From Psilocybe cubensis (lineage: Eukaryota), in NCBI GenBank assembly GCA_017499595.2, contig CM039009.1:806001-870000 (forward strand): a stretch of 64,000 nucleotides of DNA. The letters run 5' to 3'. Positions 1-38,235 of the stretch are shown here, piece after piece (within the stretch, counting starts at the first letter, position 1; every line of letters starts with the position of its first letter). The notes under the pieces were generated by a model, which made no database searches, was not told the origin of the DNA, and saw only the letters and a program-made list of their open reading frames with translations. Made by a program: the position numbers and the translations under genes.

Positions 1-760
1 CTTTACAGCCTTTGTTCATAACCTGCAAAGGGGTGTACTACTCACGGAGTATTGGAACGGTTGGTTTCCTACGTCAGGGCGTGTCTGTATACATAGTACA
101 GGAGCCGGTAAGTGACCAAAACTTTCGGGCCGTTATGATCAAAGTTCAAATTCAATTTGTTGAAACGCGACAGACGTAAACTTGGAAATTTCTCTAGGAC
201 CCCAGTACGCATGTCCGTTCATACCCAATTTTATCCCCTATCCCTGGTGCATTAATGTTTACTCAAACGCACTATTAAAACCCATGAAGGACCGGTCGGA
301 CTAATGCAGGAATTGAGACCTATATCAGATGGACTTCGGAAATGAATTTTGGGCGCTTGGCGATCAACTCGAGATAACGGAAGTCCTGAAAATGCATCGG
401 CGGCTAAGCTACACTCGGATTGAATTTTGTGCGGTATTGAACCCACATGCCAGGTCTGAAACTTCTACATTGAGATGTCTTCGGTATTATATTGACCCTC
501 AGTCACACCACCTCAGATTTGTGCCACCGAAGAGAACTCGCGGTCGTGTTCGCACCCAAAATAGTTCAATTAGAATAGAAGATGTTTTAACGAATTTTCT
601 CTGTTAGATTATCACTGGGGAACTGAAAATAAACAGGTAGTACATGAGGCTGCATCGCGGAGACTGCCTTTATATCTGGTCGGTATCCTTTCCGTTGGCA
701 AATTTCTGTTTGAATCCCACTTCCACTATCAGAGACGCCACTTCCAGTCCACCCTAAACG

Positions 761-2452
761 ATGATGAAGCCACGTCAAACTCAAAAAAAGAACAAAAAAC
801 CGACTCCAGAGGCACCAGTTACGACCCCACCCAGTGGTCCCAAATCTCTGTGAGCACCGATTTACTTGGCGCAGCATTTCATACAATGCTTATCCTTAAT
901 AGCGATCTTCTGTTTATTCATGACTGCACGGCAAGTCAAACTCCTTACATCTCAGGGACCGTCAGTCGTTGTTTGGAGATTGTTAGTGTCATCCAAGGAC
1001 TCGGGAACCTCGATACGCGTAAAGAGGGGATGCGCGTTGGCCTGATTGCGTTTTGTGATCATGGTAAAGATGAAGACTTCGTTACCAAGGACTTTGGTGG
1101 ATTTACATTCGACGTCGAACAATTCTACCATAATCTCAGGTCCCTGGAGGCTAATGGAGGCTCGGATTATCCTGAAGCCGTTACTGCTGCATTGGAGCAT
1201 AGTCTTAGGCTTGAATGGAGGACTGATGCAGCAAAGCTGGTAATCTTAATTACGGACGCCGCCCCACATGGGATTGGCGAAGAAGATGATGAATTCCCGC
1301 AGGGAGATCCAAACGGTAGGTGAATTTATGCCTTGATATCGACAAAGTTAATAAATTGGTTTAGGTCATGACCCTCTGAAGATCGCAAAGAAGATGGCAG
1401 AACAGGGGATAACGATGGTACATCATTTTTGTTAGTTCGTTTCAGCAGCACTGTGGTGACTTTTTCTTCATTTCAACAATAGCTGATTGTAGCTTGCGAG
1501 CCTGTGCTGAGTAACGAGAACGATGTATGTACAATTTTCGATTTATTATCGTGCGGGACAATACAAACTAAAGTGTACTGCACAGTACGCCCATGATTTT
1601 TACTTAGCCCTGGCAAAAATCACCAGGTAAGTAAGTTTGTTCTCACCTCTGTTAGAATTTGTCGAGTTCATATGACATGCAGGGGAAAACTTGTTCCCCT
1701 GCTTGACGTTCGCGTTCTTTCCGCTTTCATCATTGGGTACGCTCTTGAGCAAATGGGGCTTGAGGAGCTTTCTCGACAATATTCAGAACCTATTAAAGGT
1801 TTGCACAAAAGTGGGTTTACCTTGAAAGAAATGGTTAATGCCGTCTGGGAGTGGTTATCGGGTAAAGAAAACAAGGTTTACGAACTCAAGTATAACCAGG
1901 TGTATGAGGAACCACCAGAGTTTGATGAGGTCGTGAACACGTGGGCTGATGGAAAGGATATTTTGTCTGTGCGGGAACAGGTACGGCGTAAGGCAAGTGT
2001 CTTGATCAAGTATCTGGGATTGATGAACATACGCTGATGCATTACATAGTCTACACCACGCTCGAGTAAGCAACGGGTTCCTGCTCGTTGTATTGCGCCG
2101 CCAGGTGGTTGGCCAAAAACCACAGTCGATGTTACGCTCATGAACATGAATGAAAGGGATATAATCGATTTCATGTATCTCGATCCTGATCCCGACCTGG
2201 ATGCTATCAGGACTCATGGCCCCGCTCCTATCCAAAATGGGTCTCTGCAGCCAGGTGAAATCTCAAGGCAACCTAGAAAGCTTCTTGCCCATACCGACTA
2301 CTACTTCAGTCTGAAGTGCGGTTCGCAGAAAAGAAATCACATCAAGTATATCTACCAATATTTTTGTCATTGGCTTGGAGCTGACCTGAACCTATCATAG
2401 GCAAAATTTCTCAAGCAAGCAAGATATGGATGTATCGATTCACTTCAAATAA
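761..2452 (+). CDS. von Willebrand factor A (vWA) domain protein, multi-exon, copy 1 (resembles the vWA domain of alpha-kinase-associated proteins, but no kinase domain seen)
   Basis: ATG 761 (MMKPRQTQ...PKS), GT-AG intron, then DLLFIHDCTASQ (MIDAS-like DxTxS), GGSDYPEAVTAAL and VILITDAAPHG. Further exons end ...DMDVSIHFK* at 2452. Confidence 0.85.
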
Positions 2453-3054
2453 CTGGTGAAACAGGAGGTCGAACGAGACAGAACAGTGAATATAATTACT
2501 TTACGCTCGTGTGGCATTAGCTATCATGTGAAGTTTCATGATTATCTATCTGGACTCATGGCTTTGGGAAGGCATTGTGCAAGGGAATGTCGGCCCTTAC
2601 GCCATGAATGAGGGACAACATTGCTATCTAGGTATGCCAGCCTTCAGCGCTTCTCGGATAAATGACATTGGCGCCCGGCTAATTTTAAGCAAGGTCTCCT
2701 AATATAAGCACTCGTGGGTCATTTTGTGAGGTCTCATGACTGTTATCTGTACAATATGAAATCACATGAATAATAGATATTTACTTGGATCAGCTAATTG
2801 TGAACTCTTTTCAGCATCATCTACTTCTCAGGCTATCCACCGATCTATTGATATGAGGTACTAATCGCTTTTCAATTCGCTACAATTCGGAACGAAAACC
2901 CAGCTATCGGGTTCCATACCGTTGTTATTCTCGTTAAAACTATAAATGTGACTCTGGAAGGTCCCAGCGAAATATTTGCTGTTTGTTTACCCGAAGAACC
3001 CGCGCACTGAGGTTGATAAAGTCCTAGCGTCAATTTCACTTGGATAATAACACT

Positions 3055-36887: not shown

Positions 36888-38087
36888 CGTTTAGGGTGGA
36901 CTGGAAGTGGCGTCTCTGATAGTGGAAGTGGGATTCAAACAGAAATTTGCCAACGGAAAGGATACCGACCAGATATAAAGGCAGTCTCCGCGATGCAGCC
37001 TCATGTACTACCTGTTTATTTTCAGTTCCCCAGTGATAATCTAACAGAGAAAATTCGTTAAAACATCTTCTATTCTAATTGAACTATTTTGGGTAGCCGA
37101 ACACGACCGCGAGTTCTCTTCGGTGGCACAAATCTGAGGTGGTGTGACTGAGGGTCAATATAATACCGAAGACATCTCAATGTAGAAGTTTCAGACCTGG
37201 CATGTGGGTTCAACACCGCACAAAACTCAATCCGAGTGTAGCTTAGCCGCCGATGCATTTTGAGGACTTCTGTTATCTCGAGTTGATCGCCAAAGCGCGC
37301 AAAATTCTTCTCCGAGGTTCATCTGATATAGTTCTCAACTCATGCATTCGGGTTGGTCCTTCATGTGTCTTAACAGTGCATTTGAGCAAACATTACTGCC
37401 CCAGGGTTTAGGGATATATCAAGTACTGGGGTACTAGAGAAGCCTCCAAGTTTGTGCCTGTCACAATCCAACAAAATTAAATTTGAGCTTTGATGATAGG
37501 GGCCCGAATTTTTTTGATCAATTACCGCCTTCTGTTGTATGCAGACGCGCCCTGATACAGGAAACCGATTGCCCCAATCCTCAAGTCACGTACGGAGCGG
37601 TGGCAGGCGACGAATGCTGCTCGTCGTAGTGAAGGCAGATGGAGGAACAGGGGGAAAAATGAATGGCCTACGAAGCTCCTCGACGGTGTGTATGGAGCGG
37701 AGGGGGCGACGGGCAAGAAAAAGGAGCATGGCCTACTCGTCGTGGACCCTGAGTCAACGACCGAGATACGAACATCACACAGCCATCGAACGTGCCCCAT
37801 CAGCCAGCCTAAAAAGCAGCAGTCCGCGCCACGCTTGAACATTGGTAAAGTATATTATCTTGAAGTCACCTCTAATGCCTGCCGGTCTGTGATTCAGCCC
37901 TGGTGCTTAAAGCGGAGGTCCGAAAGAGCAAGGCCTGCGAGGTAAGAGTGGCCTGCGAGGACAGTGGGCAGGGAATACGAGACGGATCCGAAACTACATG
38001 TCATTGGGGCAGTGGTATCAAGATCAAGTTTCAAACATACCATATATATTGATGTCTACCAATTGACTGTCGATGTCCTGGAGTCGT

Positions 38088-38235
38088 GAAGAAGCCTCCA
38101 AGTTTGTGGGCCCGAAAGTTTTGGTCTCTTACCGCCTTTTGTTGTATGCAAACACGCCTTGATGCAGGAAACCAACTGTTCTAATCCTCCACAAGTAGCG
38201 TCCCCCTTTGCACGTTATAAGCACAGGCTGTAAGC
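38088..38235. repeat. Local direct duplication of ~37435-37585; also matches window positions ~1-130 in reverse
   Basis: GAAGCCTCCAAGTTTGTG, GGCCCGAA, TTACCGCCTT.TGTTGTATGCA.AC.CGCC and CAGGAAACC occur in both places. Confidence 0.75.

Follow-up and report, generated by a model that had tools for sequence, protein, structure and literature searches.

Is a pair of large inverted DNA arms around a developmental regulator a switch that flips the gene, or a trace of how the gene came to lie as it does? The question is raised by a 64,000-nucleotide stretch of the Psilocybe cubensis genome (assembly GCA_017499595.2, contig CM039009.1, positions 806,001 to 870,000; hereafter the window, numbered from its first letter), in which such arms bracket a gene of the WOPR (Gti1/Pac2) family. 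A first-pass annotation, made from the sequence alone, had proposed an invertible locus. We find that the structure is real and belongs to a class already described, that of inversion scars with paired duplications, here with gene conversion in part of the arms, and we put at about 70% the probability that it was left by one old inversion in which both breakpoint regions were duplicated. Literature search listings on this locus, or on such inversions in mushrooms, returned no description of the locus.

Two interleaved inverted pairs

The structure is made up of two duplicated blocks, a and b, whose inverted copies are marked with a prime, and involves the neighbouring copper radical oxidase (CRO) gene.

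1..15598, plus strand: left arm a, beginning before the first letter of the window (near -481) and split by a long terminal repeat (LTR) element
15599..15622: new junction a|b', at which the inner end of the left arm is joined to a CRO intron
15623..16644, minus strand: b', in which the CRO promoter and first exons recur inverted and decayed (copy of 39082-40734)
17714..20195, plus strand: WOPR (Gti1/Pac2) gene, with an intron at 18413-18488 (PF09729, E 7e-52)
25782..38308, minus strand: right arm a', the inverted copy of a
38309..39081: region with the second new junction, a'|b, eroded
39082..40734, plus strand: b, comprising a dispersed-repeat remnant (~100 bases), the CRO promoter and the first exons
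40126..45790, plus strand: CRO gene with WSC domains

Self-comparison of the window aligns the arms in three stretches, namely 47-7324 with 30224-37582 (90.9% identity), 7506-8248 with 26716-27619 (88-90%) and, innermost, 14675-15598 with 25782-26720 (90.3%). The inverted arms of the first-pass annotation are thus seen again, at ~91% identity and with about twice the read depth of the spacer in both raw-read runs, but they run past the ends it gave: with flanking DNA added they extend from -481 to 38308, with short remnants to -677 and 38511. They are also no near-perfect palindrome, being a mosaic that ranges from 0.7% to 17% divergence.

The spacer holds a second inverted pair member that had been overlooked, the fragment b'. 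WOPR does remain the only gene found intact in 16645-25781, as had been stated, but the layout is that of two interleaved inverted pairs, a..a' and b'..b, rather than a single palindrome. With F for the left flank, X for the WOPR segment and C for the remainder of the CRO gene, the present order is F-a-b'-X'-a'-b-C. Compared with b, the copy b' is without 30 bases around the CRO start codon (40126, inferred from likeness to the N-terminus of a Galerina protein) and without 312 bases of exons 2-3 (40254-40565). The a|b' junction contains 24 unassigned bases and no clear microhomology. A dispersed-repeat remnant of 100-125 bases is found at the upstream edge of both CRO promoter copies (16520-16644 and 39083-39183).

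Across the genome (46.6 Mb in 21 contigs), the duplicated DNA matches only pieces of <200 bases and is thus not a dispersed repeat; block a has no long third copy. The arms show no CpG bias and none resembling repeat-induced point mutation. Dispersed pieces of one further locus (L029, G000:C2:3851409-3852467), which lies beside an unrelated gene, match the outer end of the arms (253-667 and 37277-38467) at 67-85%; the locus is a candidate for a shared degraded element or promoter relic.

Gene order in relatives

Metagenome contigs were scanned with a WOPR alignment, which gave 112 relatives; 80 were kept and grouped into 50 clusters at 95% DNA identity. Of the 50 clusters, 23 have a CRO gene on the strand opposite to WOPR and 0.6-5.0 kb upstream of it; these are 23 of the 35 with a usable upstream stretch and, with the nine Russulaceae-like clusters set aside, 23 of the 26 informative ones. 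Of these 23, 13 reach the CRO catalytic domain and 10 show WSC repeats only. A further 12 clusters lack such a CRO although their upstream stretch is 2 kb or more, and the other 15 are too short.

The head-to-head clusters include those whose best hits are to Flammula, P. cyanescens, Hebeloma and Crassisporium, and all four clusters nearest to the window by best hit (L031, L033, L041 and L057) have this arrangement. In L037, L041 and L106, CRO is followed by GT2, as in the window. In L057, CRO lies upstream and an F-box-like gene downstream on the opposite strand, as the ancestral order proposed below predicts; at 37-47% identity within a large family, this gene is likely, judging by its sequence, to be the orthologue of the gene on the left flank. 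WOPR and CRO also have consecutive locus tags in Arthromyces, Tephrocybe, Hohenbuehelia, Antrodiella, Astraeus and Steccherinum, and tags three apart in Asterophora. P. cyanescens itself was rejected as a source of gene order, its CRO piece lying on a 1.3-kb contig from which no order can be read. Two of the 12 clusters that lack CRO, L053 and L081, show no neighbour gene.

In the window, b' lies head-to-head with WOPR, ~2.3 kb from the WOPR domain and within the range seen in relatives. Since relatives have CRO head-to-head with WOPR, the b'|WOPR junction is the old one at the old spacing, and it is the intact CRO gene that has been separated from its partner. Compared with the gene order of relatives, WOPR is inverted relative to CRO-GT2. 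This inversion, the gene order and both duplications are direct observations. Together, the second duplicated pair and the gene order of relatives indicate that the arms are a product of the inversion and not a pre-existing device.

From L031 to L109, the head-to-head pair of WOPR and WSC-CRO is kept across agaric-, bolete- and polypore-like fungi amid shuffled GT2, SAC3 and DENND11-like genes. A shared promoter or co-regulation is a possible reason for its conservation. In the window itself, Pfam finds CRO, GT2 and SAC3 domains in the right-hand genes, and the GH16 label of the first-pass annotation has no Pfam match in the open reading frame (ORF) pieces.

Origin of the structure

In the explanation that we favour, the ancestor would have had the order F-a-X-b-C, in which the left flank was followed by a single-copy block a of 9-10 kb with a vWA gene, WOPR on the minus strand (X) and a CRO gene that pointed away from WOPR, its 5' 1.65 kb forming b and its remainder C. 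This order would have been converted to F-a-b'-X'-a'-b-C in a single event, through staggered breaks followed by end joining or through a pair of template switches, with a|b' (15599-15622) and a'|b (38309-39081) as the two junctions formed. Two template switches give the same product as staggered breaks. Afterwards b' would have decayed, both vWA copies would have stayed open and conversion would have homogenised part of the arms; later still, a retrotransposon would have landed in the left arm. The palindrome would then have no switching role, and WOPR would retain its ancestral promoter in any orientation. That there was a single event, and that a lay beside the 3' end of WOPR beforehand, is what we infer. 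Substitution divergence from one aligner is similar for the two blocks, 9.8% for b and 7.0-14.7% for unconverted a, which is compatible with a common age, although conversion and constraint blur the comparison.

Inversions of this kind have been described in Drosophila, where 17 of 29 were assigned to staggered breaks, with duplicates ~88% identical and up to 1.9 kb long (PMC1885836), and a dupINVdup class of inversions is named in PMC5338099.

A number of observations weigh against a single inversion of this form. Nine of the 12 CRO-less clusters are Russulaceae-like by best hit and have another gene order; in L062, also Russulaceae-like, a WSC gene lies downstream on the same strand. L078 resembles the window in having WOPR on the same strand as the F-box-like, GT2 and downstream genes, but has no CRO; in L075 the left-flank gene lies on the side expected, though not on the strand expected. 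Several lineages have a shuffled neighbourhood, and block a occurs in none of the 80 relative loci, its ancestral place being a reconstruction. One of the duplications, at 9-10 kb, far exceeds the 1.9-kb maximum reported for the Drosophila set. The isomers F-a-X-b-a'-b-C and F-a-b'-a-X-b-C have the same two new junctions as the present order, which could have arisen from another isomer through a crossover between the arms. Finally, the best-preserved part of the arms (437-4250, described below) comes near in length and identity to a yeast repeat that toggles.

The two copies are circular permutations of each other, as would follow if an ancestral F-X'-a'-b-C had released a and b as a circle that was cut open between the two and then integrated in reverse orientation before WOPR. 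Such a course needs WOPR and CRO to have been in tandem and b'|WOPR to be new, whereas the 23 head-to-head clusters show that junction to be ancestral; it also needs three new junctions against two. The circular intermediate was dropped on the synteny result, and we consider it highly improbable.

Read evidence for both arms

Four of 12 listed sequencing runs were mapped to 24001-42000 at 90% likeness: X11 and X12 as raw reads, X6 as contigs, and X7, whose 14 short pieces were excluded as evidence. Short reads and contigs of this kind inform on copy number and junctions; orientation isomers have all local junctions in common.

The first-pass annotation had named as a refuting outcome that two haplotypes had been mis-assembled as an inverted repeat, and over-polishing of an assembly could indeed produce a near-identical tract. 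For the existence of two copies, the reads refute it. Depth on the arm (33001-37200) is 54-78 in X11 and 71-81 in X12, as against 25-29 and 31-42 on the unique spacer, and the X6 contigs show ~20 on the arm versus ~10 on the spacer. Both raw-read runs also read across features specific to the left copies: the left-arm deletions 27109-27229 (26 reads in each run) and 27612-29307 (17 reads in X11, 33 in X12), the a|b' junction, seen as a loose end at 25782 carrying the letters of window positions 15599-15628 (24 and 28 reads), and the deletions of b', the larger of which is crossed by 9 reads in X11 and 12 in X12. We therefore give mis-assembly next to no weight.

Several other features of the mapped region were noted. 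Four substitutions and two one-base gaps in 26216-26349 are read as the left-arm letter at or near 100% in X11, X12 and X6, interleaved with sites that are not listed as fixed (40 of 572 differences were listed). A reading of this patch as polymorphic conversion is weakened by comparable patches of divergence in unique DNA, such as 24584-24957, where this genome differs from all three runs at ~20 positions in 400 bases; the latter patch reflects deeply diverged haplotypes at the locus. At 34821-34859, some reads (12 in X11, 16 in X12) have two bases in place of 37, a form present in neither arm of this genome, and at 39069-39082 a different stretch of 70 bases is present in X11, X12 and X6. 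The loose ends that these three runs show at 37066 and 37101 were considered as a strain-specific insertion and rejected as cross-mapping: the end at 37066, the one of the two that was searched, is an exact match on contig C2, at a locus that has short pieces in common with this region.

Gene conversion between the arms

The arms carry the following genes and tract.

437..1803: conversion tract, left copy, with 9 substitutions and 1 indel in 1367 aligned bases and a longest identical run of 264 bases
35845..37213: conversion tract, right copy, inside the right vWA gene
886..2452, plus strand: vWA-domain gene, left copy, with 7 mapped exons, open
~36762-35199 (coding), minus strand: vWA gene, right copy, open
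3028..4997 (limits approximate), plus strand: second, unnamed multi-exon arm gene
27682..29136, minus strand: F-box-like ORF of 484 aa, in the right arm only

Divergence between the arms changes along their length. It is 17.5% in 47-436, falls to 0.66% in 437-1803, and rises through 4.8% (1804-2600) and 3.0% (2601-4250) to 7.6% (4251-5000) and 13.9% (5001-7324); further in, it is 5.8% in 7506-8248 and 7.6% in 14675-15598. The near-identical tract in the vWA gene that had been reported in the first pass is thus borne out. At non-coding sites, the tract has 3 differences in 680, compared with 64 in 366 in 47-436 (P 2e-27) and 70 in 920 in 14675-15598 (P 5e-14). Because non-coding sites of the tract are also nearly identical, selection on the protein is ruled out as the cause, and gene conversion fits. 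In X6 the tract is collapsed into one 1452-base contig, and is therefore near-identical there as well, which makes a polishing artefact of a single assembly unlikely. The sequence pattern leads us to conclude that the arms have exchanged sequence, with ectopic gene conversion as the process that appears to have homogenised part of them. Taken together, 437-4250 is 97.5% identical over 3.8 kb and spans two gene pairs.

Both vWA copies are annotated and open over 7 exons, and the vWA exon is 100% identical to a database protein of P. cubensis; other vWA paralogues in the genome are at ~50%. Exon 6 of this gene, which adjoins the converted tract (2050-2346 versus 35598-35305), has 18.5 amino-acid-changing against 2.5 silent changes (pN 0.083, pS 0.036), a sample too small for selection to be called. 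The second arm gene, compared copy to copy over three long ORF pieces, has pN 0.021 and pS 0.082. The ORF at 27682-29136, earlier called an F-box gene, is F-box-like by its 24% identity (E 2e-13) to the neighbouring F-box-like gene, but has no Pfam match at E 0.01. A Pfam match in one arm to a rhabdovirus nucleocapsid was dismissed as noise, being below the cut-off (E 0.008), absent from the other arm and located in an acidic low-complexity stretch.

Can the locus flip?

Given the conversion tract, the flip by crossover that the first-pass annotation proposed is mechanically possible, even though the b'..b pair and synteny speak against the arms as a device that was there beforehand. In one form of this proposal, the locus toggles without regulation: crossovers in the vWA tract would produce both F-a-b'-X'-a'-b-C and F-a-X-b-a'-b-C among strains, with WOPR in either orientation and the 5' parts of the vWA genes swapped, so that each flip yields new 5'/3' combinations of the paralogues. 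The sharp boundaries of the tract, and its near-identity in run X6 too, are what such exchange would leave. The 3.8 kb at 97.5% with two gene pairs resemble the Saccharomyces flip/flop repeat, of 4.2 kb at 97.6% and also with two gene pairs, at which ~4% of conversions are said to cross over (PMC9731477). Only 1.37 kb of the arms are >99% identical, however, with no identical run longer than 264 bases, and most of the arm has drifted by 6-17% with many indels, indicating that homogenisation is patchy and infrequent. The reads and contigs, which are blind to orientation, gave no direct sign of a second one. We regard unregulated, recurrent flipping as a live possibility, though less likely than not. 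A flip would chiefly recombine the two vWA genes.

The other form is a regulated switch that alters WOPR expression, as in Ogataea. It has in its favour that the arms enclose an orthologue of WOPR master regulators, and that Gti1/Pac2 genes are developmentally regulated in mushrooms according to PMC7567395. The geometry is unfavourable: 15.9 kb separate the crossover tract from the WOPR start, or 9.5 kb if the LTR element is discounted, and 15.7 kb separate the tract from the WOPR stop, and because the tract is at least 9 kb away on each side, the WOPR promoter would travel with the gene in a flip. The analogy to mating-type switching in methylotrophic yeasts, drawn in the first pass, also fails on the features examined: the middle of the region holds a single WOPR gene, where the yeasts have a pair of alternative loci at the two ends, and neither side shows signs of silencing. 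As a proxy for silencing chromatin we used gene content and CpG of the flanks (60 kb left, ~55 kb right), which hold ordinary genes, with no transposon domain in 62 long ORFs and CpG observed/expected of 0.88-0.98; by this proxy they look euchromatic. In Ogataea the repeat is reported to need a place in centromeric chromatin, a location on the chromosome arm having failed to invert (bioRxiv 2025.09.09.675088), and a gene in the middle of the region is described as unaffected when the two MAT loci swap between active and repressed positions (PMC4238957). A Pfam scan of the ORF pieces of the window found no recombinase-like gene. A regulated WOPR switch is thus unlikely, to a degree that leaves it little room beside the inversion scar.

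The WOPR gene and its upstream boxes

The identity of the spacer gene as a WOPR gene is upheld by its PF09729 match, the best of 11 in the genome. Upstream of it lies a conserved element:

17373..17416, plus strand: splice-donor-like motif followed by two Wor1-type boxes (17387 and 17408), 21 bases apart

Both boxes match the reverse complement of the Wor1 core. Among relatives, 17 of 39 clusters have the 8-base core in the 700 bases before the WOPR domain, compared with 0.9 expected by shuffling, and 1 of 35 has it in the next 700 bases further upstream. A looser pattern of donor plus box is found in 18 of 44 clusters, one of them (L078) spurious. The alignment of the element keeps both boxes, and structure prediction on this alignment gives no consensus RNA pairs. 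The element is present in agaric- and bolete-like loci, namely L033, L037, L041, L043, L044, L046, L050, L051, L052, L057, L075, L089, L092, L094 and L106, whereas the Russulaceae-like clusters and L095-L100 lack it. In the stretches examined, the seven other WOPR loci of the genome have no upstream core match, with one match elsewhere in L025.

A 9-base Wor1 motif is given in PMC4567300, and Ros1 of Ustilago is reported to bind such motifs in its own promoter (PMC4917244). The conserved boxes suggest ordinary WOPR autoregulation, with a candidate site in a predicted 5' UTR intron. Short simple repeats crowd ~3.5 kb on the 3' side of WOPR (20200-23800), and triplet and hexamer repeats abound within the gene.

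Mobile elements

8249..14674, plus strand: Ty3/Gypsy-type LTR retrotransposon with identical 173-bp LTRs and a 5-bp target duplication

This element, correctly recognised in the first-pass annotation, is recent and was inserted after the arms were duplicated; the right arm has an empty site at the corresponding position. Full-length copies of it, identical at 100% (rounded), number 12 in the genome and are spread over 8 contigs, the mark of a very recent burst. No LTR loose end is among those listed for X11 and X12; the listing includes ends with 16 reads and leaves off 129 rows, and the element is probably not fixed in these two. Towards the right end of the window, 59138-60579 is a non-autonomous DNA transposon-like element of a dispersed family, with 143-base inverted ends (98.6%) and a second element apparently nested inside.

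Comparison with known systems

On present evidence, the locus is a clean and polarised case of an inversion that arose together with the duplication of its two breakpoints. It broke an ancient head-to-head WOPR-CRO pair, and it shows how such an inversion creates the substrate for later conversion and perhaps re-inversion. Should both orientations prove to segregate, mushrooms would have their own equivalent of the yeast flip/flop region, and heterozygous dikaryons would have suppressed recombination around a developmental regulator. For WOPR autoregulation in mushrooms, the conserved Wor1-type boxes offer a direct and cheap test.

Among the regulators, Wor1, Ryp1, Mit1 and Ros1 have in common with the WOPR of the window a PF09729 domain, a glutamine-rich tail and Wor1 core matches upstream of their own gene. 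Wor1 acts through feedback, and all four switch states in this way and not by DNA inversion; the mushroom gene is known here from its sequence.

Ogataea polymorpha also has inverted repeats around a region of similar size with a cell-state regulator. As described in PMC4238957 and bioRxiv 2025.09.09.675088, its MAT loci lie at both ends, one of them kept silent by centromeric chromatin, and starvation sets off the inversion, while the window has a single middle gene and no evident silenced side. The flip/flop region of Saccharomyces chromosome XIV is closer: like the window, it has an inverted repeat with two duplicated protein-coding genes, homogenised by conversion and enclosing tens of kilobases. 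According to PMC9731477, it re-inverts through conversion-associated crossover, occurs in both orientations in long-read assemblies, is conserved across the genus near the centromere and has no known phenotype in mapped crosses. In the window, homogenisation covers less than half of the arm, and one orientation is known here.

The inversions of PMC1885836 and the dupINVdup class share the defining features of the window, being inverted relative to outgroups with both breakpoint regions duplicated in inverted orientation. The likeness to the staggered-break set extends to a partial, decayed gene as one of the copies, to duplicates that are ~88-91% identical and to duplicated DNA that is no dispersed repeat. 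Unlike that Drosophila set, the window is from a mushroom and has an arm as long as the inverted segment, which keeps two genes open in both copies.

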